DNA from: Coleofasciculus sp. B1-GNL1-01
GTDB taxonomy: Bacteria; Cyanobacteriota; Cyanobacteriia; Cyanobacteriales; Coleofasciculaceae
Strand: one strand, 5' to 3'
NCBI GenBank assembly: GCA_040220235.1
Contig: JAVJTO010000102.1
DNA length: 64,000 nucleotides
Part shown: one piece after another, positions 21,462-38,932 of the stretch
Layout: each line of letters starts with the position of its first letter
How positions within the stretch are numbered: the first letter of the stretch is position 1
Notes under the pieces: model-generated
Database searches by the model: none
The model's input: the letters and a program-made list of their open reading frames with translations, nothing else
Told to the model about the DNA's origin: nothing
Translations under genes and position numbers: made by a program

Positions 21462-22448
21462 TCACAGAATGCCCTGTTCTTGATACCACTTACCCGTTAA
21501 CGCTAATCCCTTGTCCAAATCGACCTGAGGTTGATAACCTAGTTCTCGTTTAGCCTTTTCAATACTGAAAGCTCGATTCTGCCGGAACCAATCAACCCGT
21601 CTCCGAAACAGAGGTGGATTGATCCCTGGCAGAGGTTTATAAACCATCTCCGTTGCCAAAGCTGCTGTCCAAAGAGGCCAGAAGGGCAGATGTATAATGG
21701 TCAGATTTACACCTATAGCTTTTGCAATCGCTGTGACCAAGTTATTGAGGGTATAGTAGTTTTCATCGGCGATCAGGTATGCCTCCCCATTGCCTTTCTC
21801 TGAGGCAGCAGCGAGTTCAAAGGCATCCACTAAGTTATCGATATACAAGGGGTGGTAGTGACACTGACCATCTCCAAACATTAAAAAGCGTCCCTTTTTC
21901 ACCCGTTTGAAGAGGATAGAAAAGCGCTCTGGATCTCCTGGTCCATATATGGCTGCTGGTCGGAGTGTTAGAACCTTTAGACCCTTTTGCACAAAATCAG
22001 GTATGAGTTTCTCTCCTTCGTATTTTGTGTATTGGTAGTAATCCGCCGGGGTAATCGGCGCATTTTCATCAGCGGGGGTTTGTTTAACATTTCCGTGAAC
22101 CCCACAAGTGCTGCAATAAACGAACTTCTCAATGCCATATTTCAGAGCCGCTTCTAGTAGGTAGCGCGTTCCCTCAACATTTACATCCCAGTAGACCTTC
22201 TTGGGAAGATTGACTTGGCGAAATGCTGCTGCTAAGTGGTGAACCACTTCACACCCTTGGGTAACTTTATCCACAAGATCTCGGTCTGCCACACTGCCAA
22301 TGTGAATCTCTGCGCCTCGTTCCTTGAGTTCATCAAAAAAGAGACCGGGCTTATTATCAATAGCGACTACATCATGCCCTTTTTGTAGTAGACGTCGCGT
22401 CAAATGGCTGCCCGTAAAGCCTGTCCCGCCTGTGACTAAAATTTTCAT
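21462..22448 (-). CDS. NAD-dependent epimerase/dehydratase (extended SDR)
   Basis: [13 protein letters not shown] catalytic motif, [10 protein letters not shown]. Confidence 0.92.
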
Positions 22449-22489
22449 TTTTTTACTCCAAATTAATACAGAAATTTCACCGTAAATAG

Positions 22490-23272
22490 TTAAACCTTTT
22501 TTGTTTCTTTTGTTTCTTTACGGTTGCGAATGATTCGAGCGGGTACTCCAACCGCCACCGCATAATCGGGAAGGTCTTTTGTCACGACAGCTCCTGCGCC
22601 AACAATACATCCTTTGCCAATGGAAACTCCATCCAGTACAATTACGCCAGCACCTAACCATACATCATCTGCGATCACAACCGGTCCTTGTGAGTAAATT
22701 CCCTGTTCCATCATTGGAATATCCAAACGGTCTGATAGATAACGTCCGCCACCGATATAAGAGTTGCCACCAATTAACACAGAACGACCAATAAAAATTC
22801 CGGTAGTAGACGAAAGAATAGTGTTACAGCCAATATCGGTTTTATCTTCGATTCTCACTGAACCTGTTTTACCCCGTATCGCACAATTTCTGGAGACAAT
22901 CACATCATCTCCTAGGTAGACCCCTTCCTCGCCAGCACCGCTGGCATCTAATAGTCCATAATCGTCAATAGCTACACGATCCCCGAGAAAAATCTGTCCA
23001 GGATGACGCAATACAATGCCTTTTCCTAAAATTACTCCTTTACCAATACTCTTGAAAAGGTTGCGATAAAATCGTTTGCGAAGTAAATAACCTAAGCCAC
23101 CGTTAACGTTGCCAAATAAGGATGTTACGACTTCGTATTTTAACAAATAAAAAATTCGGTCATTTCCCAAAACTTTGTTTTGATATCGTTTTAATACAGA
23201 AGATTCTGTTTGACTCAGTTGCTCTGTTAATGGAGTCTTATAGACTCGATTTTTCGTTTTAGGCGATATCAT
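22490..23272 (-). CDS. Hexapeptide-repeat O-acyltransferase
   Basis: Left-handed beta-helix repeats, IADDVWLGAG..IGKGCIVGAGAVVTKD..GVPAR. Confidence 0.92.
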   Translation of the reverse strand: MISPKTKNRVYKTPLTEQLSQTESSVLKRYQNKVLGNDRIFYLLKYEVVTSLFGNVNGGLGYLLRKRFYRNLFKSIGKGVILGKGIVLRHPGQIFLGDRVAIDDYGLLDASGAGEEGVYLGDDVIVSRNCAIRGKTGSVRIEDKTDIGCNTILSSTTGIFIGRSVLIGGNSYIGGGRYLSDRLDIPMMEQGIYSQGPVVIADDVWLGAGVIVLDGVSIGKGCIVGAGAVVTKDLPDYAVAVGVPARIIRNRKETKETKKV

Positions 23273-23304
23273 AGTTACCTCTCAAAAATAATGATGATTA
23301 TCAG

Positions 23305-24057
23305 TTACTTCATTTTTAAGATTTTCCGATTTGTCAAGCTGCAATGCAAAATAACCGGAGAGCCAAACCAATAGGTTAATCCTAACCCTCTGGATAATTT
23401 TTCTAAGGCTGATGAAATGTGAGGGGACTTTAACATTCGATGTAGTACCATGGGCAGAAAAAATTGTGGATAACGGTCAATGGGGGTGAGTCCGAGAGAA
23501 TGGAAGTAATCCAGCAGTTCAGATTCTTGGAAACAGGTAAAAGGTCGTGTGTTGCCTTCTACGCCTTTCTTTAGCTTAAATAAATAGGGTGCGATCGCGT
23601 TCACACTTCTAACCGTCGGATAGTCTACAATCACAGCTTTATCCGCCACCCGACCTAATTCAGCCAGAAAGGGTTTCCATTGACTGACGTGCGGAAGTAG
23701 CCGATAGCTAATCACAATGTCAAACGTGTTATCCGGATAGGGTAAGTCCAAAATATTACCCACCTTAAAGTCACAACGATTAGCGTCCACAAAATGTTGA
23801 ATTCGTGCTTTACAACTCTCTGCACTTCCCAACACTGTAACGTGATAACCGTTCTGAATCAGCGCCTCCGTCAGTTGACCATGCCCACCGCCAACATCTA
23901 AAATCTTGGCATAGGGATAAGCCGCTAGCATCTTCAGCGTTGCGTCTTCTTGAACCTTGAGTAACCAAGCGCCAATTTCCCCAGCAAAACGGGATGCATA
24001 ATCGTCTGAAGATGTTTCGATATCGGCTGTTTCGGGAAAATTATTTGTCGTAACCAT
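23305..24057 (-). CDS. Class I SAM-dependent methyltransferase
   Basis: ILDVGGGHG, LPYPDNTFDIV. Confidence 0.88.
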   Translation of the reverse strand: MVTTNNFPETADIETSSDDYASRFAGEIGAWLLKVQEDATLKMLAAYPYAKILDVGGGHGQLTEALIQNGYHVTVLGSAESCKARIQHFVDANRCDFKVGNILDLPYPDNTFDIVISYRLLPHVSQWKPFLAELGRVADKAVIVDYPTVRSVNAIAPYLFKLKKGVEGNTRPFTCFQESELLDYFHSLGLTPIDRYPQFFLPMVLHRMLKSPHISSALEKLSRGLGLTYWFGSPVILHCSLTNRKILKMK

Positions 24058-24099
24058 TGTTTCATGCCCCTGAACAACTAAGGTTATGCCAACTATTTC

Positions 24100-24891
24100 C
24101 TAGGCTTTATCAATTCTGGCTTTGACAATTAGCATATAACCACTTACTCCTAATAATAAACCATCTAGCTTAGAAAACAGCCAAACAACCGGATAAACCA
24201 AAGAGTACATCCTGAACATTTTTTGGTATCGCTTCATGTCTTGTCCGGTAACAATTCGACCCTTCTGAGATTTTGCGCCTCCCCGTTTCAATACGTCAAG
24301 TGCCAATGTCATCAACGTGTCAATGGCTTCCGAGAAAAACTTAGAATAGGTTCTGTGACTGACTATTTTAAACCGACCCATCAGCAAAGATACTAAGTCA
24401 TCCACGGTATACCCCGGTCTGACATGTCCATGTTTTTCATCCGTCTGTCCAATTGCTAGCCGAAACCTTCGCAGTAGGCTGTTTTTGATATGCGGCACGT
24501 TAATGATTAATTCTCCCCCAGGTTTGATAATACGGAATAATTCCTTAACAAATTCTTCATCGGTGTGAATATGTTCCAAAAAATCGATGATAGCCACTCG
24601 GTCAAATTCGTTATCAGCAAATGGGGTTTGACGACCATCAATCTGAAATACGTTGTCTTTCACCAATCCCCGGATGGAATCAACTGTATGTTCATCTAAA
24701 TCAGCACTTTTCCAGATTCCACCCCGTTGACGAAGCAGATAACTAATCACACCATTATCAGAACCAATATCCAGACAGTGTAACTCAGTACTTTCTCCCA
24801 ACAACGCAGTAATTTCTTGGAATTTTCTCTGTTTCAGCACAGATTTTTCAAATAGTAACAGAGGCCATTCTTTTTCTAATATCTTTTTCAT
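24100..24891 (-). CDS. Class I SAM-dependent methyltransferase
   Basis: CLDIGSDNG, PFADNEFD, FLEH, IIKPGG, HVRPGYT. Confidence 0.88.
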   Translation of the reverse strand: MKKILEKEWPLLLFEKSVLKQRKFQEITALLGESTELHCLDIGSDNGVISYLLRQRGGIWKSADLDEHTVDSIRGLVKDNVFQIDGRQTPFADNEFDRVAIIDFLEHIHTDEEFVKELFRIIKPGGELIINVPHIKNSLLRRFRLAIGQTDEKHGHVRPGYTVDDLVSLLMGRFKIVSHRTYSKFFSEAIDTLMTLALDVLKRGGAKSQKGRIVTGQDMKRYQKMFRMYSLVYPVVWLFSKLDGLLLGVSGYMLIVKARIDKA

Positions 24892-24933
24892 CGTTATTTC
24901 CTAATTATTCACTGTTTCCTTAGTTAAGCATAC

Positions 24934-25788
24934 TCATGGCATCGGTGAATCATTGGTTCGTTGACGCAATTGACTCGCCAAATTCCGTTTATACAATCGC
25001 TCAAAATGGAGGTCGGACTCGAAGCGCATGAAACGGTACACACGGTTAGAATTTAATGATAGCTCTCGATCCAAAATCAACTCTATTCCCTCACCCAACA
25101 CACCTTGATTAATCTCATAGACAATTCTGGCTTCGCCAGTGAATCGCGAACCGAAGTTAAAATCGTAGTCGTCAAAATAGATTACACAACCATTAGGTAA
25201 GTAAGGAATCAACTTGTCAAAAACGATGCGAGTTGAACTATAATAATCACAGTCTATCCAAACTAAAATAGGTAAATTAGTTTCCAGTGTACTGAGACAT
25301 ACATCAGTCAGAGTATCCTGAAAATAGCCTTTGTGAATGTGGTAATTTTGATAGTGACTCCGACAGTAGTCTTCAAGCTCTTGATATCTTCCCTTAAATT
25401 GACCCTTAACCCATCCATCATCTGCAATGATATCTTTGTCTTTTGCATCAACAGAATCGGGCATTCCCTCGAAAGAATCAAAGGTGTGAACAGTGATTCG
25501 GTCATCCATGTCAAGATACTTGGTCGCATACAGCATTTTCGTAAAAGAATAACCATCGGCTGTGCCAAATTCAAGAATAGAAAATTTTCCCTTATACTGA
25601 TTTTTAAACTCCTGAATAACTTCGTAAATTATATCCATTCGATAAAAGCTATTCAGAAGACGACGCAATATCTTACGAGGTTTGTGAATTAAATTTAAGT
25701 AAACCGTTGTTTTCAGATAGTTTCCTGGTAAGAGCTGACCTAAGCGCCGCAACAAGATAATCAATGGAGATTTATCTGGATATTTCAT
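24934..25788 (-). CDS. TylF/MycF-like sugar O-methyltransferase
   Basis: ILEFGT..G, FDSFEGMP, GYFQDTL, IDCDYYSS, FDDY. Confidence 0.85.
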   Translation of the reverse strand: MKYPDKSPLIILLRRLGQLLPGNYLKTTVYLNLIHKPRKILRRLLNSFYRMDIIYEVIQEFKNQYKGKFSILEFGTADGYSFTKMLYATKYLDMDDRITVHTFDSFEGMPDSVDAKDKDIIADDGWVKGQFKGRYQELEDYCRSHYQNYHIHKGYFQDTLTDVCLSTLETNLPILVWIDCDYYSSTRIVFDKLIPYLPNGCVIYFDDYDFNFGSRFTGEARIVYEINQGVLGEGIELILDRELSLNSNRVYRFMRFESDLHFERLYKRNLASQLRQRTNDSPMP

Positions 25789-25801
25789 TTTTTTAGTTGA
25801 T

Positions 25802-26341
25802 TTAGGTATTTCTTCTCGGATTGGCTTTGACTAATCGCAACCATCTTACTCCCCACACTAGCAAAACTGAATAGACCAATTCAAAACTAATCCAGGTTAG
25901 GTGGCTGTAATGCCACAACCCCCTAGAGTGATGAACTCCCGGAAAAATAGTAATTGAAGAGACAAAAAAGTTTTCCGTAAACGGGTACAGCAACGGAATC
26001 CCTCTGCCTTCGGTAAAAAAATCCAAAACCAGATGAGAACTATAGAGAATAAACGTTATCCAAGCCAGTTGCTGGTAAGAGAACTGCCATCGTTTACGGA
26101 GTATGAACGCCAGAATCAAACTAAAGCCAAGGGTAAAAATCAGGCTGTGGGTCAAACCGCGATGGAATGATTCTCCAGTGATGATCTGAGGAATAAAATC
26201 TAGGTCAGCAACGGTAGCTACAAAAACCGGATACAAACACAGGATTTCCCATCGCCTACGCCTAGAGGTTCTGGGTTGAGTTAAGGGTAAAAACTTGGCA
26301 AGAACATATCCGGAAACAGCGTGGGCAAGGGGAGATGGCAT
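25802..26341 (-). CDS. YdjM-like membrane metal-dependent hydrolase
   Basis: AH, DLD, HRGLTHS, SHLVLD, P.LYPF. Confidence 0.85.
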   Translation of the reverse strand: MPSPLAHAVSGYVLAKFLPLTQPRTSRRRRWEILCLYPVFVATVADLDFIPQIITGESFHRGLTHSLIFTLGFSLILAFILRKRWQFSYQQLAWITFILYSSHLVLDFFTEGRGIPLLYPFTENFFVSSITIFPGVHHSRGLWHYSHLTWISFELVYSVLLVWGVRWLRLVKANPRRNT

Positions 26342-26377
26342 AGGTCAAACAGGAGATGACTGTTGATGATCAACAAT

Positions 26378-28063
26378 TTATACTACGGTTAGAAATCGAT
26401 GCTGATTAACCTCCTTCACCGCTTGTATTTCTTGTTCAATTCGGGTGAGACTCCAACCCAGTTCTGTTGCCATGGTTTCGGCACAATGCTTGAGAATGTG
26501 AGGTTCAGGAACGCCAGCGCTACCCATTTCTATACGCCGAAATATCACATCACTTAAGGTTTGCGCCATTTCTTCGCGAACGGCATGAATTACCTCAGCT
26601 TTGAGAACAGCTAACTCATCGACTGGCGCTTGTTGTCGGTGAAGATTGCCCTCTAGGGACTGAAGTATATCCGAATAGGCAGACCCATAGTTATACACCA
26701 GACGACGCATGGTTTCCTCAGTTAATCCATCAGGGGAATTTGTTAGCGCCGTTTGCAAAAAGGTATCAAATTGTTCAATGTCTCCGCCATAAATCGGAGT
26801 GATATCAGAAACCGATTGTGGTGGTTTTTGTCCCCAGGATTTGAACAGTTTGTCTATTGCTTTTTCCGCCACATCTCTGGCGGTGGTATACTTCACACCA
26901 ATAATTGACAGGAGTCCCGGCAATCCTTCACGGGCATGATCGTGGATGTGATACTGTTTTTCCAGTAGGGGTTCTCCGGTGTGAGAATCTACTCCGGTTC
27001 TGGGCAATAGTCCCCCATGGACAAAATCAACATCTTCGGGTGTGAGATTGGCGGGTGGGTATGCCTGGTTAATTTGATCCAGCAGGTCTTGAATATCTGC
27101 TGCGGTAACCTGTAAATCATCGGGTTTCTCATCCCAAACTGTATAGGATGTACCGATGATTGATTTGCCTCGCCAAGGGGCAATAAATAGGAAGCGACTC
27201 CCTTTGTTCAGGATGGCATTGGGGTCACTATTGCTATTGGTGCTAGAAATTCCTACAGCATAGGTTTGGAATAGGGGACGAGTGACGAGGTTAACCGCTT
27301 TAGCCAAAGGCACATTAACAGATGGTGACTCTCCCTGAAGCCAACCCAGAACTTGATTCATCCAGGGACCACTGGTATTGATGACGGTTTTGGCGCGGAT
27401 GTCGAAGTGATTCCCGGTGAGGCTGTCTTTGGCTTTGATACCCGTGATGTGATTACCCTCTTTGAGAAAGCCAATCCCTTCCACATAGTTGGCGACATCT
27501 GCACCCGCTTGTGCGGCAGACTGGAGAAATGAGAGGGGAAGTCGTTCTGAGTTGTAGACTTGAGCATCATAGAAGAGTGCGCCCCCGGTTAACCCTTCGT
27601 TGGGAATACCTGGAAGCAACTGCTGACAGTCTTGAGCAGAAATGACGCGACCATTAGGAATATGTTTTTGGGGATCATCGAGTTGGTTGCGATCGCAACT
27701 AATCATATCATTCACTGCCAGTGCCAGACTCAAGGCTTCTTTTCCCTTCATCCCATGTCCATAGGTGGGAATCAAAACTGGGAGTGGGTGGATTAAGTGA
27801 GGCGCAATCCGGAATAAGGTTCTGCGTTCCCGAATCGATTCCCGCATACGCCGAAAATCAGCGTTTTGCAGATATCGCAATCCCCCATGAATCGTCTTTA
27901 AGCTGTTAGCAGAGGTGGCTGAGGCAAAATCCCCTTTCTCAACCAACGCCACGGATAAACCCCGCAAGCTGGCTTCCCAAGCGATGCAGGCACCATAGAT
28001 ACCACCGCCAATGATCAGTAAGTCGTATGTGTTTCTGGTTAAATTGAGCAGGTTTCTCTTCAT
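26378..28063 (-). CDS. FAD-dependent glycerol-3-phosphate dehydrogenase/oxidase-like protein
   Basis: IIGGGIYG, EKGDFASATS.NS.KTIHGGLRYL, KYTTAR, EEMAQTLSD; start at MKRNLL with AGGAG RBS. Confidence 0.9.
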   Translation of the reverse strand: MKRNLLNLTRNTYDLLIIGGGIYGACIAWEASLRGLSVALVEKGDFASATSANSLKTIHGGLRYLQNADFRRMRESIRERRTLFRIAPHLIHPLPVLIPTYGHGMKGKEALSLALAVNDMISCDRNQLDDPQKHIPNGRVISAQDCQQLLPGIPNEGLTGGALFYDAQVYNSERLPLSFLQSAAQAGADVANYVEGIGFLKEGNHITGIKAKDSLTGNHFDIRAKTVINTSGPWMNQVLGWLQGESPSVNVPLAKAVNLVTRPLFQTYAVGISSTNSNSDPNAILNKGSRFLFIAPWRGKSIIGTSYTVWDEKPDDLQVTAADIQDLLDQINQAYPPANLTPEDVDFVHGGLLPRTGVDSHTGEPLLEKQYHIHDHAREGLPGLLSIIGVKYTTARDVAEKAIDKLFKSWGQKPPQSVSDITPIYGGDIEQFDTFLQTALTNSPDGLTEETMRRLVYNYGSAYSDILQSLEGNLHRQQAPVDELAVLKAEVIHAVREEMAQTLSDVIFRRIEMGSAGVPEPHILKHCAETMATELGWSLTRIEQEIQAVKEVNQHRFLTVV

Positions 28064-28095
28064 GATATGATGCTCCTTACCCTGATTGTGATTAA

Positions 28096-28722
28096 CTAAG
28101 CTTCTACGCTTAACGCTCCGGTTGCACCCTCCACTAATCCTGCATACAACCAATCATAGAGAAGATTGAATTTTCGACAAAACACTTTATACGTGTGATT
28201 CTGTTCAATAAATTCTTTTCCGCTGCTACCTAGTTTGAGTCGTAAATCGGGATCATCAATCAGATTCACCATTCCCTGGGAAAAAGCTTGAGGCTTGGGT
28301 GCTGCAAGTCGGGAAATTTGGCTATTCAACACCTGGGTGTGAGTGGGTAAATCCGTCGCTAGTAATGCTTTGCCGCTGTGTAGATAGGAATAGAGTTTCA
28401 TGGGTGTATTTTTCCCTTTGACTCTAGGCGAGACGACAATATCAGCCTGGGCTAGATATAACCCTAGATCATCAACGGGTTTAGGTCCCAAAAAATGGAC
28501 GTTTTCTAAGATGCCAAGCCGTTTAGCCTGCTGCTTGTACTTCTGAATGTCAGACGCCTCTCCACCGATAATGACTAAATCAGCTAACTTATTTTTCTTT
28601 AAAGTCAAGGCAAAACTTTCCAGGAGGAGATCCACCCCCTGATACGTTTCCAGATTTCCCACATACATTAGCAGTACATGATTAATTCCTAGTTCAGCTC
28701 TCAAATTACTCTGCATTTGCAT
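28096..28722 (-). CDS. GT4 glycosyltransferase, C-terminal nucleotide-sugar-binding domain only
   Basis: YVGNLETYQG, FLG, ADIVVSPR..NTPMKLYSYL.SGK; preceded by its own RBS-like AAGGGTGG. Confidence 0.85.
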   Translation of the reverse strand: MQMQSNLRAELGINHVLLMYVGNLETYQGVDLLLESFALTLKKNKLADLVIIGGEASDIQKYKQQAKRLGILENVHFLGPKPVDDLGLYLAQADIVVSPRVKGKNTPMKLYSYLHSGKALLATDLPTHTQVLNSQISRLAAPKPQAFSQGMVNLIDDPDLRLKLGSSGKEFIEQNHTYKVFCRKFNLLYDWLYAGLVEGATGALSVEA

Positions 28723-28748
28723 ACACCACCCTTTTTACAGAATCTCAG

Positions 28749-29309
28749 TCAGTTCAATAACGATATATCGGGGATAACCACCACATTTTTGGGCTTGTAG
28801 GCTTGAATATCAGTCGCTAATGCCTGACAAACTGCCACAACAACCGCCGCCTTTTGCACCGCTACTCGTTCACAAAAATTCAAAAATGAATTGAGTAATG
28901 TTAACTTTGGATACTTTTCGATAAGCTGCTGTGCTAGAGAAGAATCCATGTCATATACATAGGGAAGCTTGCAGAATAGATTCAGCATTAAGGCAATAAA
29001 GACCGATTCCTCTCCGGCATGAACCAAATCGTAGCGCTTACGGGACATCAAACCGATGACTTTAAAAATCATGAAAAAATCACAGACTAATTTCTTCCAG
29101 GAGAAACCCGGTCTAATGTTGTGAACAAAGGGTAGCCGTGGCGTCCGGTGTATGGTTACGTTGGGATACTGAATATCACGTCCTTCTGGATAAGTTACCA
29201 TGTCAACCTGGTCTCCTCGTTCAGATAACACCCTTAAAACCAAGTTCACGGCAATGGGTGTACCCCGGTTTTGGTAAAAGGGGTGAGGGGCTAATAATAG
29301 AACATTCAT
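28749..29309 (-). CDS. GT4 glycosyltransferase, N-terminal acceptor domain only
   Basis: MNVLLLAPHPFYQNRGTP, YDLVHA, YVYDMDSS, VAVC..L; ends at VVIPD, the normal interdomain linker. Confidence 0.82.
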   Translation of the reverse strand: MNVLLLAPHPFYQNRGTPIAVNLVLRVLSERGDQVDMVTYPEGRDIQYPNVTIHRTPRLPFVHNIRPGFSWKKLVCDFFMIFKVIGLMSRKRYDLVHAGEESVFIALMLNLFCKLPYVYDMDSSLAQQLIEKYPKLTLLNSFLNFCERVAVQKAAVVVAVCQALATDIQAYKPKNVVVIPDISLLN

Positions 29310-30490
29310 CTGATGGGGACTGTTCTTTGAGCCAGATACAGTCCTTTTCTGAAAGCGACTTTTCTTAACCGAGCGTTTTTTTACTCTCGTCAGAAGTTTT
29401 TGGTTAATTAGAAACATTTCTTGCTCCTTTTTTACGTCGATACTCAGAAATAATTTATAGTTGTCGCTGGAACTATAGAGGTAAAAGTTTCTTTACACTC
29501 TCTCTAGGAGATACAAATCTTTACCTGAATTTATTCTCCTACTCCTATTGCATATAAAAGAGATAACATGTATGAATGAAATTTTTCTATGCTTGAAGAA
29601 AAAATTTATGAGAACTTTAAATTCTGGTTTATAAGCAAAAATTATATTAAATCTTGGCGGGAGGTAATTTCGGATGCTCATCCGACTATCCCACTCTCTT
29701 ACCTGGCTTCATTTAGTTCAGAAGATCGGCGCTTACCCACTTAGAGGACATCTAATTCGACACATTCTCCTGATCCCAGCGACTGTATCAGAACTATCAA
29801 TCCAACAATTATAAGAAAACTTTATACCTCTTAAGGCATAAGCCTATAGGCTTACTTCATACAAGCTTTATACAGCGAAGGAAAATATCCTTCGTGAAAG
29901 AAAGTAGAAATACTTATAACCCAGACTCCGCACTTCAAGTTGAAGTACAAGAAGCTACATATCCAATCAAGGGAAAAAGTCTGAAAAATTTACCCCTTGA
30001 ATATCTTTTCAGGAAACCGTAATTCTTTTGGAGATTCTTGTGAGCTTTTTTAAGCAGCAGAAATTGAAGAGTATCTACTCTCCTTAAACGAATTTATCCA
30101 TGCTCAAAAAATTCTCCAATTGCCACGAAGGTGAGTCAAAAAAATCACAGATAATATTTTTGACAAGAGGAGGGCAAGAAGTTCAAAATAAATTGAATTT
30201 TATCCGTTAAGTTAACTATCTGTTTGACTCCATTAATAACTACTGCATGAATCCCTTTAAAACATTGAAATATCCACCGTAATGTTGGATGATTGGTCAA
30301 TTTACCCACTTGATTTTGGCTCTCCCGTACTTAGTGTGATAATATTTACGGAGGACTCCTGGAGGACTAGCACTGACCTGAATCCTTACGAATTCGGAAT
30401 CAACTGTTCAGTTATAGCTCAACTCTAGCTTAATGTCTAGTTTATTTTATGTCAAGCCTACTATTAGTTTATGGATGTATAAATCACTTC

Positions 30491-31264
30491 TTACTTGAGA
30501 GCCACCCAGGAAATAAAGTTATGTAATTTAATCAGAGAATCAATCTGCTTAAAGCCACTATCATACAACATTTGCACCTGCTGGGCTTCTGTTAACGGCA
30601 CTAAAACATTCTCTAGCGCCTCCTTTTTGCGTTCGATTTCAGTACGGGCATAGCCATTATGAGCTTTAAAGGCTTCATAGTGTCGGGTGATTGTCTCTTG
30701 AAATTGGGGATAGGGTGACTTGACCTTTTCACTGATGAAGAGTAAGCCTCCTGGAACCAATCCCTCGTAGATAGTCTGGAGCAAGAGTTGACGCACCTGT
30801 AGCGGCAAAAATTGCAACGTGTAGTTAATCACGACAACACTACTATTCTCAAATGAACAGTTTTCTGCCTTGTCACAGATGAATTCAATCTTATGGATCT
30901 GTTTAATCTGAACTAACTTATGCTCGGCTTTCTCTAGCATAGGTTGAGAATTATCAATCCCAACCAGCGTAGCGTTTTGCTTTAATAAACGTCCCAGTAG
31001 TTCCAAAAATGTCCCCGTAGAACAGCCCACATCAATGATCCGCGTTCCCGGTTGATAATACTCTCTCGCCCAATGAGCGGCACAGGTTAGTACCTCTTGG
31101 TACAAAGGAACGGAACGGGATATCATATTATCGAAAACATTAACCACATCCTGGTTAAAAGCAAATGGTTTGGGCCACACTCCTTTTTCAAAGAGTTCAT
31201 CTTTTTCAGGACTCAGATAAAGTTTTGTGTGATCAAGTTCTGAATCGAGTTTGTCGTAATTCAT
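30491..31264 (-). CDS. cmoA: Carboxy-S-adenosyl-L-methionine synthase
   Basis: F.FNQDV..VFDNMISRSVPLY, DVGCSTG, NYTLQF, SEK, FK..NGY...EI.RKKEALENVL. Confidence 0.92.
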   Translation of the reverse strand: MNYDKLDSELDHTKLYLSPEKDELFEKGVWPKPFAFNQDVVNVFDNMISRSVPLYQEVLTCAAHWAREYYQPGTRIIDVGCSTGTFLELLGRLLKQNATLVGIDNSQPMLEKAEHKLVQIKQIHKIEFICDKAENCSFENSSVVVINYTLQFLPLQVRQLLLQTIYEGLVPGGLLFISEKVKSPYPQFQETITRHYEAFKAHNGYARTEIERKKEALENVLVPLTEAQQVQMLYDSGFKQIDSLIKLHNFISWVALK

Positions 31265-31272
31265 CAGTCAAT

Positions 31273-31510
31273 TGTAGGGGCAAATTTAGGGACTGTAGAG
31301 GCGGATTTAGGGACTGTATGGACGGGTTTAGGAACTGTAGGGGTAGGTTTAGGGACTGTATGGACGAGTTTAGGGACAATTGTAGGGGCGGGTTTAGGGA
31401 ATCAATTCAGCTAGTCACCGATAAATGAACAACAAAACCCGCCCTCCCCACCAATAATGGATAATGGAACAACAAAACCCGCCCTCCTCACCAATAACGG
31501 AACAACAAAA
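31273..31510. repeat. Tandemly amplified REP arms: six ~21-bp left arms, then repeated right arms
   Basis: Units TGTAGGGGCAAATTTAGGGAC, TGTAGAGGCGGATTTAGGGAC, TGTATGGACGGGTTTAGGAAC, TGTAGGGGTAGGTTTAGGGAC, TGTATGGACGAGTTTAGGGAC and TGTAGGGGCGGGTTTAGGGAA, then GAACAACAAAACCCGCCCTCC x2 plus a partial copy. Confidence 0.85.
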
Positions 31511-31668
31511 CTTAATAGACAGTCTAGGACAGTACGAGATAGCATAGCATTCTGTAAATTGTTGTGTAAATTACAGGTGAAGGTTCAGCACGACTCCTTT
31601 CAGGTGGATCGCAATCATAAGCTGTATTTTCTCCCCCCCGTCCGAAAGCACCTATCTCAAAGCCTTAT

Positions 31669-32595
31669 TTAGCAAAAACCTGAAAATAGAACCCCAGAAA
31701 TACGATCATGAATTGATTTCCATTCATTCGCTAAAGCTGTTTCTCCACTGCGGATTTCACGCCCATTTAACTCAGGATGACGAGCATAGAAAACCGCATC
31801 AGCTAATTTATCACGAACACTTACATTGTTCACGCTAGCTTGATCCTGGTCAGAACTTGCAGAGCCACAGTTACTTTCAATCCACCCCACCCAATTCTTT
31901 ACGACCCCGCGCAGGGCATTCCATTCTCGAACATAAAGTTCTTGAGACGGATCAATACTCCTCCCTTCCATGTCTGGATGAACCGCATAAAAGAAGGTAT
32001 CTGTCCAATCATCGACCTCCTCTTTGCGTGACGATGATGACGATGATGTCGAAACTTCTGTTAACTCTGTACCATCCCAGACGTAATAACTGGTTTCCAT
32101 CCAATCAGGTCTTTTTCCCGGAGTATTTTCGGGCGGATTAACCACGAGTAGCCGACTATCCAACTTATGCTTCACACCCGCTTCAGCCACAATACCTGGC
32201 ATATAAACCGAGCCAGTTTCAGCGTCAATAATGGCAACAGATTGACAGCTTGTGCCACATCCCCAAGTCACCACCGTATATTTTCCGGCAAAATTGGGTC
32301 CGGTTTGTGCGCCCTCTCGTAAAACAGTGCGGAATCTTCTAGCATCAGGGTCACTGCTTAAGTCAACGGGTGCAGGATTACCTGAGAAAGATTCGGTTGC
32401 TGGATAATCATTGAAGTCTGGAGGAGATGCTTGCTTGGTGTGGCTTACTTGTGATGCAATTGTTTCCCTATTCGTGTCGAGGGTGTTAGCTTGCTGGGAG
32501 AAAGATTCATGGGCAGACAGTGGGGAAGAGCTAAAACCAAGTGCTAATGTTAGAGTAAGTCCTGAAATTATACGGGTTTTCATGTTATTATTCAT
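31669..32595 (-). CDS. Secreted hypothetical protein, two domains
   Basis: Signal peptide; domain with GPNFAGKYTVVTWGCGTSC; Ser linker; two FY..HP...GR.I...EW repeats. Confidence 0.8.
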   Translation of the reverse strand: MNNNMKTRIISGLTLTLALGFSSSPLSAHESFSQQANTLDTNRETIASQVSHTKQASPPDFNDYPATESFSGNPAPVDLSSDPDARRFRTVLREGAQTGPNFAGKYTVVTWGCGTSCQSVAIIDAETGSVYMPGIVAEAGVKHKLDSRLLVVNPPENTPGKRPDWMETSYYVWDGTELTEVSTSSSSSSRKEEVDDWTDTFFYAVHPDMEGRSIDPSQELYVREWNALRGVVKNWVGWIESNCGSASSDQDQASVNNVSVRDKLADAVFYARHPELNGREIRSGETALANEWKSIHDRISGVLFSGFC

Positions 32596-32810
32596 TGCTT
32601 TTTGCTTTTAGCTTCACCTAAAGGGTAAACAGAGGCTGCCACTCTTTCATCCCTCTAAAGTGTGTCATCTGAAAACTTTAGTAGGCGTGGGTTACGCCAT
32701 AACCCGAAGCCTAGCTATCACGCTTTTGACTGTTCCCCTAGAAAAAAATCACTACATTAACCTCTTCCTTGTTGTTATCCTTCATCCAGGCAGGGAAAAC
32801 GGTGAGTACA

Positions 32811-33425
32811 TTAACTTTTTTGAGGAACCGTGAACTGAACCGAATCGCGTTCGTGTAACTTATTGAACCAATCTCTTAAGTGAATATATTTTAATTGCCA
32901 ATCTTCATCTAGGCGCAAACTGTAGTAGCCTAGGGAACATAAGCCAGCTACATCGGCGGCTGTCCAGGTTTCATCCCCCAACAAGTAGTTAGACTTAGCT
33001 AACTGTTGATCAAAAACTGGCAAAAGGCGATTAATTGACGTTTCTAATCTTGTCCGATAACGAGTGTCGGTGAAATTATTTTTCAAATTTAGTATCCATA
33101 AATTGATGATAGTATCACCTAAATAATCCGCGAGTTCTTCCCATTTACGACACTCAAGCCGTGTCCGAGGCTCACTGGGGTAAAACCTCGGCTGTGGATA
33201 GGTTTCGTCCAGATACTCCGCAATTAATGTAGAATCCCAAATCACCGTGCCATCTTCATCGACAAACACAGGGACTTTACCAATAGGAGAAAGATTGATA
33301 AATTCCGGGGGCTTATCAAGCAGATTGATTTCTCTTAGTTTGCACTCTATATTTTTCTCAGCTAACAGAATTCGGATTTTCCGAGAAAAGTGGGATTGTT
33401 GATGATAATACAATATTCTATTCAT
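32811..33425 (-). CDS. Glutathione S-transferase
   Basis: SHFSRKIR, PIGKVPVF, WDSTLIAEYL, TAADV. Confidence 0.92.
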   Translation of the reverse strand: MNRILYYHQQSHFSRKIRILLAEKNIECKLREINLLDKPPEFINLSPIGKVPVFVDEDGTVIWDSTLIAEYLDETYPQPRFYPSEPRTRLECRKWEELADYLGDTIINLWILNLKNNFTDTRYRTRLETSINRLLPVFDQQLAKSNYLLGDETWTAADVAGLCSLGYYSLRLDEDWQLKYIHLRDWFNKLHERDSVQFTVPQKS

Positions 33426-33616
33426 TAGATATCTCCCGACATTCCGGTTGGTAATCAAACAACCATCTAAACTGCGATTCAGCTAACCAAGTTGGGGTAA
33501 GTTTGTAGATCCAATTTCGCAGCAATGCGTAACTTTTGTTGGTAGGCAATACCCACCCTACGGTATATCATAGGTTTCGGCGACCCCAAAATGCACGCTT
33601 TTCAGCGCCATTCGGC

Positions 33617-33907
33617 TTAATAAGGCATTTCAGTCTCTTCTACATCTGCTGGAGCGTCTGTCAATCCCATGCGATCGAGGGCGATGACAACCCCTACAGA
33701 TACCAATCCTCCTAAAAGTAAACCCATAATCAGAAGCATAATATAGATGCGCTTCAGAGATTTTTTTGTCGCTTTTATATGCTCTGGCGATAGATTAGGG
33801 TCAAGGCTTTCCTGTTCAGTGTCTGGAGATGTCTCATCTGCCCCATCTCGTTGGGGATTGGGAAAGCCGTCATGCTCGAATTCTGGGGGATTTTGATTAT
33901 TCCACAT
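33617..33907 (-). CDS. Small single-TM hypothetical protein
   Basis: Acidic N-region plus one TM helix (IYIMLLIMGLLLGGLVSVGVVIAL). Confidence 0.65.
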   Translation of the reverse strand: MWNNQNPPEFEHDGFPNPQRDGADETSPDTEQESLDPNLSPEHIKATKKSLKRIYIMLLIMGLLLGGLVSVGVVIALDRMGLTDAPADVEETEMPY

Positions 33908-34076
33908 ATCTCTAGTTTGATTATGATTGGCAGGATTCTCATCAGCCTAAAGTTAGACTGATTCTCGGTAACGAGTTTCACGATCCAAAATTTGGAAGCA
34001 ATGACATTGGGTTGCGTTCCTCAACCCAACCTATACAGTTGACATGCACCCGGCTCATATCTAGAGTTATAACAAT

Positions 34077-34207
34077 TAAGTGGGTGGACACAATTAAAGT
34101 TAACGGTTGAGATTAGGAAACAGGGAACAGGGAACAGGGAACAGTAGGGGTTTGAGGCTTGTTTACATGACTTAATCTAGTTAAGTTTATTTCCACCAAC
34201 CTACTTA
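34077..34207. mobile_element. MITE-like element, family B, copy 1
   Basis: Ends TAAGTGGGTGG...CCACCAACCTACTTA with an internal STRR; near-identical to 42903-43026. Confidence 0.75.
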
Positions 34208-34236
34208 ACCTATTCTTATAAATATAAACAGTTTAA

Positions 34237-34947
34237 TTAATATTTCAAGTAAAAGTCTTTAATCAAGCTAATAAATTCAGGAGTATAAACCCGTCTAGTA
34301 GCTTCTATCGTGAGAATGTTTTCCTGAGAGGATAACTGATGTTTCCCAAATTCCAGTACAATCCGTTTAGCTGGACTAGCTAAAGTTGGTTTAACCGAGA
34401 GTTTCCTGTGGCAAAAAAAACCAAAGGCTTCGGCTTTGTCTTGGAAGATTTGGGCTGCCTCAGTGGGGTAAATTACAGCTAGCATGCCATTCTCTCCCAA
34501 AAGCTGTTCCGCCACTTGTAATAGATCCAATTGCTTCAAAGAATCACTATGTCGTGCTACGGTTCTCGCCTTGTGTGACGCTTTACTGGCATTGTCAAAA
34601 AAGGGAGGATTAGACACAATCAGATCATAGCGCTTTGAGCAAGTCGTGGCATAATCTTGCACAGAACTCAGGTACACCTGAATGCGATCGCGCCATGGTG
34701 ATTTCGCCACATTCTCCCGCGCCTGAATGCCAGCCTCTGCGTCAATTTCCACGGCGTCGATGTGCGCCTGCGATCGCTGTGCCAACATCAGCGCCACCAA
34801 ACCCGTCCCTGTGCCGATATCCAGAATGCTTTTTACGCCCGTTATATCCGTCCATGCCCCTAACAGTGTACCATCTGTGCCGACCTTCATTGCACAGCGA
34901 TCGTGAAAGACGGTGAATTGCTTGAAGCGAAAGTATGGATTAGACAT
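34237..34947 (-). CDS. trmN6: tRNA1(Val) A37 N6-methyltransferase (YfiC/TrmN6 family)
   Basis: F.FKQF.V.HDRCAMKVGTDG.LLGAW, ILDIGTGTGLVALMLAQR, DLIVSNPPFF, ARH, C-terminal DFYL. Confidence 0.9.
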   Translation of the reverse strand: MSNPYFRFKQFTVFHDRCAMKVGTDGTLLGAWTDITGVKSILDIGTGTGLVALMLAQRSQAHIDAVEIDAEAGIQARENVAKSPWRDRIQVYLSSVQDYATTCSKRYDLIVSNPPFFDNASKASHKARTVARHSDSLKQLDLLQVAEQLLGENGMLAVIYPTEAAQIFQDKAEAFGFFCHRKLSVKPTLASPAKRIVLEFGKHQLSSQENILTIEATRRVYTPEFISLIKDFYLKY

Positions 34948-35040
34948 TCTCTGTGGTTGATCATGAACAGCTTCCCCCTAACCTACTAATTTAGTAGAAA
35001 TTAGTATATTTTTAGTAGATAGAGTACAAACGGCGTTCAG

Positions 35041-36375
35041 ATGAAAATGCCTCGGTTGCCCAAGCCTTTGCCGCAGTTGTTGGCTGAAGTCTCAGCCTCT
35101 GGTCGTTTGGCGGATATCTTAGTCCTATATGATACCTCGCCAAAACGTCTGGACTACCTACACTGGGATGAAATCCGTTATCGGCAACCCCCAGAGGGAT
35201 TATCCACGGAAGAATGGTGGCTGGCAATTAAGTTGCAGCGAAAGGCATCCTATCAAGATATACCCCTTGTCGATACTCATGGGAATTTATTTCGATTCTG
35301 TGTTCCTGATTTTGTCGCTGAGCAGTTGCATCAAATTGACCGAGGGGCAGGAACATTAATTGGGATACAGCATCCCATTACTAATCCGCAAACCCGTGAT
35401 CGCTATCTAGTACGCTCTTTAATAGAGGAGGCAATTACCTCCAGTCAACTAGAAGGTGCAGTAACAACACGAGAAGTTGCCAAAGCCATGTTAAGTAGTG
35501 GTCGTCAACCCCGCAACCGGAGTGAACAGATGATCCTCAACAACTACCGGACAATGCAGCACATTCGGGAACTCAAAGAGACACCACTTACGCCAGAAAT
35601 TGTGCTGGATATTCACAGGATTATTAGCCAAGATGCTCTCGATAATCCAGATGCTACAGGACGATTACGTAGGCAAGACGAACCGATAGAAATTTCCGAT
35701 GACGAGGGTAATATTTTTTATATTCCTCCTCCATCCGCTCAACTGCCTGAGCGTCTCGCCGCAATGTGTTGCTTTGCCAATAGTGAAACTCCTGATACCT
35801 TTATCCATCCTATTATTCGGGCAATTTTATTGCATTTTTGGCTTGCTTATGAGCATCCTTTCATTGATGGAAATGGCAGAACAGCAAGAGCATTATTTTA
35901 TTGGAAAATCTTGAGAAGCGACTATTGGTTATTTGAGTTCATCTCGATTTCACAGATTATTCTCAAAGCACCAATACAGTATTATCGTTCTTTTCTATAC
36001 ACGGAAACAGACAATAATGATTTAACCTACTTTTTGATTCATCAAACAAAGGTTATTCGTCGAGCATTACAGGAGTTACATAACTACATTACTCAGAAAA
36101 GTCGAGAAGTTGAGGAAACAACAGCGTTATTGAATCAATTCAATAGGCTGAATCACCGCCAACAGGCATTATTAGCTCACGCTTTGAAGCACCCAGGATA
36201 CAAATATACAGTATCTGAGCATCAAGGTAGACATGCAGTTGTTTATCAAACCGCAAGAGTAGATTTGCTCACATTAGCTGAAACGGGCTTACTGGAACAG
36301 AGAAAGCAGGGAAAAGCCTATATTTTTATGGCACCTGTGGATTTAGCTAAACGATTGAGAAATTTGGACAATTAA
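35041..36375 (+). CDS. Fic-domain protein (AMPylase) with C-terminal HTH-like region
   Basis: Canonical HPFIDGNGRTAR; upstream SSQLEG inhibitory-helix motif (class II). Confidence 0.92.
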   Translation: MKMPRLPKPLPQLLAEVSASGRLADILVLYDTSPKRLDYLHWDEIRYRQPPEGLSTEEWWLAIKLQRKASYQDIPLVDTHGNLFRFCVPDFVAEQLHQIDRGAGTLIGIQHPITNPQTRDRYLVRSLIEEAITSSQLEGAVTTREVAKAMLSSGRQPRNRSEQMILNNYRTMQHIRELKETPLTPEIVLDIHRIISQDALDNPDATGRLRRQDEPIEISDDEGNIFYIPPPSAQLPERLAAMCCFANSETPDTFIHPIIRAILLHFWLAYEHPFIDGNGRTARALFYWKILRSDYWLFEFISISQIILKAPIQYYRSFLYTETDNNDLTYFLIHQTKVIRRALQELHNYITQKSREVEETTALLNQFNRLNHRQQALLAHALKHPGYKYTVSEHQGRHAVVYQTARVDLLTLAETGLLEQRKQGKAYIFMAPVDLAKRLRNLDN

Positions 36376-36439
36376 TGATAAAAGTGCGTTTTTTAGGACT
36401 GCTATATCGATCAAACCCGTCCCTACATGTCTGAATTAA

Positions 36440-37648
36440 TCAAGACATTTTACCCAGAAGTAATGCTCCCGGAACAGCTTTTTTAATCCAATCAGTCACT
36501 AAAAGTTGTTCTGGTTCAAAGGTATCAACAGGTTCGCCGTTTATGGTGCGAAAAATAACGTCTTGGGGAACAATCTCTTCACCCGTTGGTAAAACCATAC
36601 CTTGAATCTGTGAACTATCAAAGGAACGCCAGGTGTAAAAAACTACATATTTACCACTTTCGCCAGCCAGAACTTCCGCTAAACAGGCATCATTCCGGTA
36701 TTCAGATAGTTTTGATTTCATCCGGGGAAATAATGCTGTGGTGCGGTTCGCTTTGAAAAAAGGAGCGCGTGTTTCCCGGAACCAGTTTCCCCGTAATTTT
36801 GCCGGATTTTCTAACACCTGGCGACAAATTTTATCAAAATCAATAGCAACATTGTCCTCCTGACTCAGATGCCGTAAGTCCAGACGTACTGTATGTAAAC
36901 CCGCATCACGTAACCCATCTAACCGATCCAGAATAAACTGATCTTTGTCTAAGAACATAAATGTGCCATGGGCAGTTTCTAATGTTGGGAAATGGCGATT
37001 AGGATTATCAGCAAAAGCCGCCGTCGCTTCTAAGTAGAGAGGGGAGTTTGGGTTGAATCGGTATAGCGAATCAATGTCTTCTGTTGTTTCTTTATTCTGG
37101 CTTTCCAGCAACGGGTTTACTAAGAGCGATCGCGGCGAGTAAAATAAGAGAATGGGTCCCACACCCAGCAGTTCACAGGGAACCGATAAGGTTTGGCAGT
37201 ATTCAATTAGCTTTTCTTCCGGTAGTTCAATCGATAATACTAACCGTTCCAAGGATTCCGAAAAAATCTCGCACCATCCCTGCAACGCCTCCAGATTGTG
37301 ATTTCCTGTCTCAACAATTAACTGGATAGGTATCTGAGGATAATGGGTTTTAAGCCAATAAGCAGCGCCCGGATCACACACACGAATGGCACCAAAGAGA
37401 TTGAGTTGCCAAGCCTTTAGCTGATCACAAATGGTTTTCATGACTCGTTCTGGCATTAATACATCCCAGACGAGTACCGGGCGCAGTTCGTTTTGCCAAG
37501 TGTGTTTGGCTAAATCATGTACCTTCGCCTTTGATAATTGTCCCTGTCGTGCTAAGACTATTGGTTCTAATAATACTTCATGTAAATGGGGCGCATTAAC
37601 ACAGCGTTCTAAATCTTCAATTGAGGAAACAAAGGTATTAAATTGCAT
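36440..37648 (-). CDS. Peptidase U32-like protein lacking the Fe-S Cys motif (TrhP1/YrrN-like)
   Basis: ETGNHN, RLVLSIEL, ELLGVGPILLFYSPRSLL and HGTFM resemble the U32 family without the C..C..C triad; directly downstream of the second U32 gene. Confidence 0.7.
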   Translation of the reverse strand: MQFNTFVSSIEDLERCVNAPHLHEVLLEPIVLARQGQLSKAKVHDLAKHTWQNELRPVLVWDVLMPERVMKTICDQLKAWQLNLFGAIRVCDPGAAYWLKTHYPQIPIQLIVETGNHNLEALQGWCEIFSESLERLVLSIELPEEKLIEYCQTLSVPCELLGVGPILLFYSPRSLLVNPLLESQNKETTEDIDSLYRFNPNSPLYLEATAAFADNPNRHFPTLETAHGTFMFLDKDQFILDRLDGLRDAGLHTVRLDLRHLSQEDNVAIDFDKICRQVLENPAKLRGNWFRETRAPFFKANRTTALFPRMKSKLSEYRNDACLAEVLAGESGKYVVFYTWRSFDSSQIQGMVLPTGEEIVPQDVIFRTINGEPVDTFEPEQLLVTDWIKKAVPGALLLGKMS

Positions 37649-37702
37649 TTGTCATTTGTCAGGGAACAGGGAACAGGAAACAGGAAACAGGGAATTCATA
37701 AT

Positions 37703-38932
37703 TCAGACTTCACTAGCAACGGTTACAGGGGAACGGGTGAATCGAACGACATTTAATTTGGTGATATTGTGCGATCGCATGGAGTCATCCGGTTTGGGTA
37801 AGCGCACAATACTGTCCTTTCGCATCGACTCTAACCGTTCACCTGTCATCGAAAAAATCTGATTAACATTCCAGCATATCGGTTTTCCTTGAAACGGGAT
37901 AATTTCAATTTTATCACCGACAGCTAACGGTTCAAGTAACCGTAAAATAATCTCTTGGGACGTCGTATCCATAACCATGCCGAAATATTGGTGAGTTCCT
38001 GTATTAATTCCCGATAACTGTCCAAAGACTGAATCCTTATCGGCTGGTGTGTCTAAGGAACCGGAAAAATAGTCTCGGTTAGGAATCGATTGTAGTTCGG
38101 CTGAGGCTTGGCTGAGTAGCTGTTCATCTAATCTCCCAGCAGCATAAGCATCAATTAATTGGCGATAAACCTTGCAGGTGAGGGCGACATAGAATGATGA
38201 TTTCATCCGCCCTTCGATTTTTAATGAGCAAATATTATGGTTGAAGAACTCACCAATCTGATAAATTCCCCACAAATCTCTGGACGACATGAAGCTAACT
38301 AAATCATCCGGTTGCTTATCCTGATGTTGTAAGTGATAGGGTAATCGACAGGATTGAATACATCCGCCCCGATTAGAATCGCGACCTGCGGTAAAATTAG
38401 AAATGGTGCAATGACCCGAATACGCCATACACATTGCACCATGGGTAAACATCTCCACGTCAATACCGGATTCTTCTCCAATTAAACCCGCTTCAGCAAT
38501 ACTGAGTTCTCGACCAACAATTAAGCGTTTTACTCCCATTTCTTTCCACAAACGGGCGCTATAGGAATTGAGACAAGAGGCTTGAGTGGAAAGGTGAATC
38601 GGTAGAGTTGAACTCCTTTTAATAACTCGGATAACTCCTAAATCAGAGACAATCACCCCATCAACGCCAATAGATTCCAGAAACTGGCAATAGTCAGGGA
38701 GTCCCTGAAAGTCTGCATCGTGGAGAAAAGCATTCAGCGTGACATAAATTTTGGCATCATGGTGATGGGCATATTCGACTCCGTGGGCTAACTCAGAATC
38801 CGTAAAATTATCCGCACGCGCCCGCAATCCATAATTTTGTCCCCCTAGATACACCGCATCTGCACCATAAGCAATGGCGACTTTTAACCGTTCCAGATTC
38901 TTCGCTGGGGCGAGGAGTTCAGGTTTGAGCAT
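37703..38932 (-). CDS. trhP: Peptidase U32 family tRNA hydroxylase (TrhP/TrhP2-like)
   Basis: KPELLAPA, GADAVYLGG, HLSTQA, E.FTHGAMCMAYSGHC.ISN..GRDSNRGGCIQSCR, SLKIEGRMKS. Confidence 0.8.
   Translation of the reverse strand: MLKPELLAPAKNLERLKVAIAYGADAVYLGGQNYGLRARADNFTDSELAHGVEYAHHHDAKIYVTLNAFLHDADFQGLPDYCQFLESIGVDGVIVSDLGVIRVIKRSSTLPIHLSTQASCLNSYSARLWKEMGVKRLIVGRELSIAEAGLIGEESGIDVEMFTHGAMCMAYSGHCTISNFTAGRDSNRGGCIQSCRLPYHLQHQDKQPDDLVSFMSSRDLWGIYQIGEFFNHNICSLKIEGRMKSSFYVALTCKVYRQLIDAYAAGRLDEQLLSQASAELQSIPNRDYFSGSLDTPADKDSVFGQLSGINTGTHQYFGMVMDTTSQEIILRLLEPLAVGDKIEIIPFQGKPICWNVNQIFSMTGERLESMRKDSIVRLPKPDDSMRSHNITKLNVVRFTRSPVTVASEV

Follow-up and report, generated by a model that had tools for sequence, protein, structure and literature searches.

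A candidate cassette for oxygen-independent wobble uridine modification, found in place of trhO in cyanobacteria

We analysed a 64,000-nucleotide stretch of DNA from Coleofasciculus sp. B1-GNL1-01 (contig JAVJTO010000102.1; hereafter the window), in which four minus-strand genes fall between positions 30491 and 38932: a U32-family gene with a full Cys motif (U32A), a U32 gene without it (U32B), trmN6 and cmoA. Same-genus genomes show the operon breaking up, and the window holds an insertion-riddled remnant of a five-gene cassette, U32A-U32B-trmN6-cmoA-cmoB, the last gene of which lies on another contig. Very probably this is a real and conserved cassette for the O2-independent formation of 5-carboxymethoxyuridine at tRNA position 34 (cmo5U34) together with N6-methyladenosine at position 37 (m6A37), the whole of the chemistry being predicted from homology and retained residues. 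In cyanobacteria the cassette would replace the O2-dependent hydroxylase TrhO, which was found in none of the 61 distinct cyanobacterial carriers.

The cassette and its exclusion of trhO

The cassette genes of the source genome (G000; other G numbers denote compared genomes, L numbers loci) are as follows.

37703..38932, minus strand: U32A, TrhP1-like Fe-S subunit, 409 amino acids; PF01136, CX6CX15CX3C, E160 and a TrhP-type C-terminal domain
36440..37648, minus strand: U32B, Cys-less U32 paralog, 402 amino acids, predicted TrhP2-like partner; weak PF01136 match
34237..34947, minus strand: trmN6 (YfiC-like), predicted tRNA m6A37 methyltransferase and optional cassette member; TrmN match and NPPF motif
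30491..31264, minus strand: cmoA, predicted carboxy-S-adenosylmethionine synthase, 257 amino acids, Lys at the E. coli Arg199 position
G000:C77:50356-51339, outside the window on another contig: cmoB, adjoined by a transposase-like open reading frame (ORF)

All four minus-strand ORFs of the window are intact, and family scans bore out the identities assigned to them in a preliminary description, which had presented them as a four-gene cluster. Each of the four genes is real; what that description overlooked was cmoB on contig C77 and the absence of trhO. The four genes are not contiguous, a Fic gene, a 96-amino-acid ORF, a glutathione S-transferase gene and a 308-amino-acid ORF being interposed, and the gap between U32B and trmN6 is only ~220–300 bp in the same-genus loci L021, L022, L023, L025, L221 and L222. 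In the six same-genus loci holding both cmoB and cmoA, these two genes are separated by 0.1–11 kb (at most ~2.3 kb in five, 11 kb in the sixth).

Linkage of the cassette genes, presented as a cluster in the preliminary description, is conserved, though not universally, and exceeds chance. Among 54 related loci, taken with at most 10 kb of flank each, U32A lies directly upstream of U32B in 29, while trmN6 is present within the locus in 19, cmoA in 18 and cmoB in 16; all five genes fall within 10 kb in 11 of the 54. The five genes are consecutive with gaps below 50 bp in G105 (L137) and nearly as compact in Lyngbya PCC 8106; in the Okeania, Trichodesmium and Dapis loci they are mostly scattered yet retained. 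Across 62 distinct carriers (64 genomes with two duplicates removed) cmoB occurs in 59 and trmN6 in 56. The cassette is rare (7/251 genomes in an even sample of the class), and co-occurrence there is tight: U32B is found in 7 of the 251 and cmoB in 12, and all 7 U32B genomes fall within the 12 and hold a cassette-type cmoB. Four of the five other cmoB holders have an E. coli-like gene and the fifth, G073, the cassette type. The optional nature of trmN6 is apparent from its presence in 2 of the 7 class-sample carriers and, without the U32 pair, in 14 of 18 genomes of genus g62 (L158–L170), mostly with two trhO-domain matches.

The TrhO domain (PF17773) was found in one of 65 carrier genomes, the sole holder being the non-cyanobacterial G304. 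Removing two duplicates, G304 and G305, a metagenome-assembled genome (MAG) labelled 'Chloroflexota', leaves 61 distinct cyanobacterial carriers (two of them labelled only 'uncultured bacterium') with no trhO in any; the same is true of all 18 carriers known to be at least 90% complete. As background, trhO is present in 184 of the 244 non-carriers sampled from the class, in 40 of 49 relatives that are not carriers and in 23 of 27 genomes of the window's own family. When 19 hand-picked genomes are placed on an RpoB tree, carriers are intermixed with trhO holders, which takes 8 changes, at least 4 of them forced by starred branches; no RpoB match was obtained for G060. The RlhA domain served as a control for specificity: 6 of 22 carriers have it vs 14 of 49 non-carriers, i.e. 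the background rate. Since trhO never accompanies the pair in cyanobacterial carriers and RlhA does so at the background rate, the pair behaves as a substitute for the tRNA hydroxylase rather than the rRNA hydroxylase. In published data the two routes tend to occur together, and so strict an either-or in oxygenic phototrophs departs from that pattern.

The source genome itself, 100% complete by marker genes in 172 contigs, has U32A and U32B as its only U32 genes. Neither trhO nor a trhO remnant was found in it (only generic rhodanese matches of at most 46 bits), nor was the RlhA domain (PF12392/DUF3656). With the cassette in the place of TrhO, the pair would be the only known route to 5-hydroxyuridine (ho5U) in carrier genomes.

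The predicted pathway

The remnant operon would complete the anticodon loop of the U34 tRNAs that read NYN codons. After the predicted prephenate-dependent formation of ho5U34 by the U32 pair, CmoA would convert prephenate and S-adenosylmethionine (SAM) to carboxy-SAM (Cx-SAM), CmoB would use this to turn ho5U into cmo5U, and TrmN6 would place m6A37 on tRNA-Val(UAC); the operon thus offers neighbourhood evidence for m6A37 and cmo5U34 acting together. Suitable substrates are encoded by the genome: its tRNA-Val(UAC) has A37, and Pro, Thr, Ser and Leu are each served by a tRNA with U34. The search did not turn up tRNA-Ala(UGC), which is probably unassembled. Because Ala, Pro, Thr, Val, Ser and Leu also have tRNAs with C34, the G-ending codons are independent of 5-oxyuridine derivatives (xo5U).

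U32A carries the Cys motif CX6CX15CX3C, as given in PMC11574389, at residues 168–195 (C168, C175, C191 and C195), and its E160, C168 and C175 align with E162, C170 and C177 of E. coli TrhP, which are essential there (PMC6599085). The motif is present in 57/57 U32A-type ORFs and absent from all 76 U32B-type ORFs and all 120 aligned U32B rows. A match to PF16325 (Peptidase_U32_C; 25.5 bits, E 1.5e-5) lies just under the 28.2 cut-off, DUF3656 is absent, and U32A scores 259 bits against YrrO, 190 against TrhP, 176 against RlhA and 117 against UbiU. U32B has a weak PF01136 match (52 bits); D62, R89, G94, E159 and R173 are invariant across its 120 rows, and F-x-S-x-R and HGT motifs are common to it and YrrN. 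Its model shows a TIM barrel followed by a C-terminal beta domain (predicted local distance difference test, pLDDT, 94), with the U32 protein 5d88 as the top Foldseek match. In maximum-likelihood trees of hand-picked sequences (44 rows in full, 26 after dropping 18 long-branched or redundant rows), U32A and U32B each form a clade of their own (100/98–100 support) and U32A stands apart from Firmicute YrrO. Taken together, these features suggest that the pair would work like TrhP1/TrhP2, being TrhP1/TrhP2-like rather than proven orthologs, as the preliminary description had proposed in calling it a two-subunit hydroxylase; it would feed CmoA and CmoB.

Modelling of U32A and U32B with a 4Fe-4S cluster supports the binding of the two as a heterodimer. 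The complex scored 0.89 and the best of three controls 0.00; by an approximate calibration, 51 of the 78 solved complexes attain the mark, as do 2 of the 108 mismatched pairs. The runs had at least 91% of contacts in common, partner pLDDT was at least 85, and the modelled interface takes in U32A residues 169–190, beside the Cys cluster. No solved U32A-U32B-like complex was found by sequence or fold search, phmmer of the solved structures returned no U32 relative, and neither search revealed a structure of TrhP type.

The product of cmoA passes the CmoA model TIGR00740 (203.9 vs the 193.3-bit cut-off) and is best described as a CmoA variant of predicted activity. CmoB passes TIGR00452 (348 vs 275 bits) and retains K91, Y200 and R315, the Cx-SAM contacts, K91 being the residue that selects Cx-SAM over SAM (PMC4482062). 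The trmN6 product keeps the MKVGT start and the GxGxG and NPP(Y/F) motifs and is 41% identical to E. coli YfiC.

These arrangements can be set beside the known systems. In Bacillus subtilis, TrhP1/TrhP2 (YrrO/YrrN; PepU32#3/#5) and TrmR make 5-methoxyuridine (mo5U) at position 34 (PMC6599085). The cassette resembles that system in its tandem four-Cys and Cys-deficient U32 genes, its TrhP-type C-terminal domain and the 38–40% identity of U32A to YrrO; unlike it, the order here is P1 then P2, trmN6, cmoA and cmoB take the place of trmR, and trhO is absent, while U32B differs from YrrN in lacking all four Cys, in having a C-terminal domain and in being only ~20% identical. The likeness to E. coli TrhP/TrhO-CmoA-CmoB(-CmoM) and TrmN6 lies in the enzymes (CmoA 35%, CmoB 36% and TrmN6 41% identical, with the CmoB contacts kept), whereas the two-subunit hydroxylase, the missing TrhO, the single cassette, the CmoA Lys for Arg199 and a cmoB of another clade set it apart. 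UbiU-UbiV and RlhA share the U32 fold and O2-independent hydroxylation; UbiV, however, keeps its Cys ligands where U32B has none, DUF3656 is absent and the similarity is lower. UbiU/UbiV was rejected as an identity for the pair, U32B lacking the Cys ligands and the scores lying under their cut-offs (UbiU match of U32A 151 bits vs 440; no UbiV match for U32B).

Origin, counter-evidence and alternatives

The cassette would have been gained long ago from outside the phylum, and among the genomes sampled its closest relatives are MAGs from the phylum to which G304 belongs. The cyanobacterial U32A and cmoB sequences each form one clade (cmoB in a hand-picked tree of 28 rows), and in both the sister is G304, labelled 'Bdellovibrionales bacterium'; the cassette-type cmoB groups with sequences of that phylum, not with E. 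coli. The U32 pair is present in 19 of 110 genomes of the G304 phylum, 18 of which also have cmoB, unlinked. Thirteen cmoA genes of that phylum were read, and the Lys found in the cyanobacterial CmoA of the cassette is shared by just two of them, from G304 and G349; this, with the sister position, points to the G304 lineage, or an unsampled one, as donor. In G304 itself trhO stands beside a Lys-type cmoA (L140, G304:C130), a contig that carries neither the U32 pair nor cmoB, both of which are located elsewhere in the assembly. A foreign origin, which the preliminary description had considered, is thus probable. The hybrid of Bacillus and proteobacterial parts also suggested there is unsupported, as is an assembly from Bacillus and Gammaproteobacteria, U32A standing apart from YrrO and cmoB apart from E. 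coli, and the combination already exists in 18 of the 19 pair carriers of the G304 phylum.

A recent transfer was rejected, the composition of the cassette matching the genome (GC content at third codon positions 0.38–0.48 vs a genome mean of 0.44, standard deviation 0.06), i.e. ameliorated. In a tree of four cassette genes, two of the RpoB groups recur (98/99 and 95/94), as expected under vertical descent; the history may have been a single ancient gain followed by reciprocal losses, or else transfer between related hosts. Placing G105 deep, with G305 outside, is rejected by a narrow margin (p 0.039), fitting some transfer. Similar cmoA genes occur in MAGs named Chloroflexota, Anaerolineae and Myxococcales, and four cassette genes lie on a 7.6-kb contig of G305. 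These occurrences suggest mobility, or they may be binning errors.

A number of observations weigh against this reading of the cassette and its history. As to the exclusion of trhO, 47 of the 65 carrier genomes have no stated completeness, carrier kin are not independent samples, G304 has both the pair and trhO, and 22 of 32 published TrhP1/P2 organisms also have trhO (PMC6599085); moreover, 60 of 244 non-carriers lack trhO as well, from which it follows that the hydroxylation step is dispensable in cyanobacteria. The 720-contig genome G073 has a cassette-type cmoA-cmoB (L270, G073:C8), but searches of it gave no U32 pair and, for trhO, only a weak match (E 6e-6), a state that is either an intermediate or an assembly gap. 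For the enzymes, the best NCBIfam match of U32A, TrhP, scores 265 bits, under the 534 cut-off, and the TrmN match of the trmN6 product scores 276 bits, under the 350 cut-off, yet is the best family by far. U32B is ~20% identical to YrrN, TrhP and YrrO alike, i.e. no closer to YrrN; a U32B+YrrN clade has 59/34 support in the reduced tree, on a very long branch, and is absent from the full tree, and topology tests reject neither U32A+YrrO (p 0.41) nor U32A+U32B (p 0.35). The complex run held a ligand unlike the calibration set, which makes that calibration approximate, and 7 of 44 blind neighbours also pass the test. The supports for the sister position of G304 (87/70 and 95/78; 84/89) are all unstarred, and the trees sample outgroups thinly, being without Myxococcota, Desulfobacterota and most other phyla. 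Finally, the one residue through which E. coli CmoA contacts the carboxylate, Arg199 (PMC4482062), is replaced by Lys in all 26 clade rows and all 120 protein matches.

This Lys is the ground for an alternative in which the hydroxylase is the same and the end product another. The Lys-type CmoA would make little or no carboxy-SAM, and the tRNAs would stop at ho5U or receive mo5U, through a side reaction of CmoB with SAM, with which CmoB is able to methylate (PMC4482062), or from a resident PF01596-type O-methyltransferase (G000:C118), orthologs of which adjoin trhO in 3 of 8 relatives' loci. We consider this unlikely, in that the Arg-to-Lys exchange is conservative and fixed, cmoA still stands beside cmoB, the K91 of CmoB is kept, and the C118 protein lacks the TrmR-specific arginines 86, 90 and 178. 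It is very unlikely that U32A acts alone as a one-subunit TrhP, with U32B an independently decayed duplicate or loose accessory and no equivalent of TrhP2. The gene order reversed relative to yrrN-yrrO, the length of U32B (~390–400 amino acids with a C-terminal domain missing from YrrN, ~310 amino acids) and the single A+B clade left standing by the topology test would fit such a history; the invariant residues conserved over 120 U32B sequences, the place of U32B directly behind U32A both in 29 of 54 loci and in the loci of the G304 phylum, the motifs in common with YrrN and the passed complex test do not. This alternative concerns history and the need for the subunit, and the pathway is unchanged either way.

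That the pair is a split RlhA-like enzyme for C2501 of 23S rRNA, or for some other target, with the link to tRNA genes due to hitch-hiking, is very improbable, and this identity was rejected. About half of RlhA1 proteins do have a second U32 motif (PMC5727448), and G000, G304, G306, G307 and G308 have the pair only and no long RlhA; DUF3656, which is unique to RlhA (PMC5727448), is nevertheless missing from the pair, RlhA coexists with it at the background rate while trhO never does in cyanobacterial carriers, and U32A is nearer YrrO than RlhA or UbiU. The grouping with RlhA or UbiU/V that the preliminary description had named as a possible outcome was accordingly not seen, U32B also lacking the UbiV Cys set.

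Both the pathway and its occurrence in these cyanobacteria have been reported before, a fact that limits the significance of the finding and contradicts the supposition of the preliminary description that the pathway was not described in the phylum. Sakai et al. (2019; PMC6599085) report trhP1/trhP2 in some Cyanobacteria, and Kim (2015; PMC4482062) notes CmoB in some. The supplement of the former labels as TrhP1/TrhP2 the proteins B4VZ99/B4VZ98 of C. chthonoplastes PCC 7420, A0YQV8/A0YQV9 of Lyngbya, Q10W89/Q10W92 of T. erythraeum and E1X0A0/E1X0A1 of Halobacteriovorax, in a classification by neighbour-joining. In its Supplementary Data 2 the row for T. erythraeum reads TrhO 0, TrhP1 1, TrhP2 1, CmoA 1 and CmoB 1, and this is the only one of the 32 TrhP1/P2 organisms with CmoAB; the gene set is that of the cassette, but the genes are scattered and the row is uncommented in the accessible text, which mentions neither the operon nor trmN6, the trhO exclusion or the origin. 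The accessible portions of PMC6599085 and PMC11574389 do not demonstrate that U32 hydroxylases catalyse the reaction directly, nor what their second subunit does. Searches of the open-licence literature, which leaves subscription papers and several supplements uncovered, showed no paper describing the operon, the mutual exclusion with trhO, a Lys-type CmoA or the U32 heterodimer. The present analysis adds how the five genes are arranged, that they strictly replace trhO in cyanobacteria, a model of the asymmetric heterodimer, the Lys-type CmoA and a likely donor lineage.

A broader interpretation can be offered tentatively and is, on balance, doubtful. Several lineages of oxygenic cyanobacteria may have swapped an O2-using hydroxylase for a mobile five-gene cassette encoding an asymmetric U32 heterodimer (one Fe-S subunit and one cluster-less scaffold, possibly independent of TrhP2) and a Lys-type carboxy-SAM synthase, the two routes being incompatible in these cells, unlike in Firmicutes and Gammaproteobacteria. 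Wobble decoding would then be tied to prephenate and iron and not to O2, suiting dark anoxia in mats or nitrogen fixation at low O2. An explanation by anoxia is plausible; Trichodesmium, a plankton of oxygenated water, is also a carrier here. The compact cassette, the confidently modelled heterodimer and the lack of a backup TrhO would make a clean system for reconstitution and for a first direct test of TrhP2-like subunits.

Neighbouring features and related loci

The remaining features between U32A and cmoA are listed below.

37660..37694, strandless: five copies of a 7-bp repeat inside the 54-bp U32A-U32B spacer
35041..36375, plus strand: Fic-domain gene, 444 amino acids, an insertion between U32B and trmN6 that does not belong to the cassette and is absent from this place in six same-genus loci
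33617..33907, minus strand: 96-amino-acid ORF without a family assignment, an insertion that follows trmN6 and is retained in genomes of the same genus
32811..33458, minus strand: glutathione S-transferase, inserted in some loci (L021, L022, L023 and L224) and absent from others (L025, L221 and L222)
31669..32595, minus strand: 308-amino-acid ORF, a variable insertion also in L023; it has no family assignment, and by eye its start resembles a signal peptide
31273..31501, strandless: short tandem repeats upstream of cmoA (21-bp period x6 and 40-bp period x2)

The nearest named records to the window U32B are from Coleofasciculus (89–94% identity), and a protein search with the 308-amino-acid ORF returned hypothetical proteins only. 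Part of a similar Fic gene (73%) lies directly after U32B in L029, and the U32B-trmN6 site may attract insertions of Fic genes. The window contains no tRNA genes; a promoter and terminator scan was uninformative (22 sites vs 18.3 expected, and 6 vs 7.9 expected), and eight RNA runs of 2017 contain 0.12–0.25 of sampled words, giving no evidence of expression or habitat. Elsewhere, trmN6 is in two pieces in G004 (L224, G004:C57) and G433 (G433:C40) and cmoB in two pieces in G450 (L059), reflecting either decay or assembly error.

A second type of cyanobacterial cmoAB is found in G037 (L144), G303 (L145), G184 (L146) and G272 (L147). Here cmoB is E. coli-like (~50–52%) and adjoins trhO in three of the four, no U32 gene was found in the two tested, and the CmoA proteins are divergent, with S, N or R at position 199. 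The predicted end product is again cmo5U, and this trhO-linked set is a second, separate acquisition in cyanobacteria. In three further genomes (L215, L217 and L219, from G009, G036 and G031) trhO lies beside a PF01596-type O-methyltransferase without the TrmR arginines, a candidate cyanobacterial ho5U methyltransferase.

G000 also encodes a second CmoA-like protein (G000:C70:19990-20700; 32% to E. coli CmoA), the gene for which sits inside a cluster of polysaccharide ABC-export, glycosyltransferase and sulfotransferase-like genes; it may provide the carboxy-SAM with which glycans are carboxymethylated, or it may simply be an ordinary methyltransferase. Within the window, a co-oriented cluster at 21462-29417 (minus strand) holds two glycosyltransferase-like ORFs, an FAD glycerol-3-phosphate-oxidase-like protein, YdjM, TylF and two other methyltransferases, a hexapeptide transferase and an epimerase-like ORF, and is likely to serve envelope glycan synthesis with no relation to the cassette.

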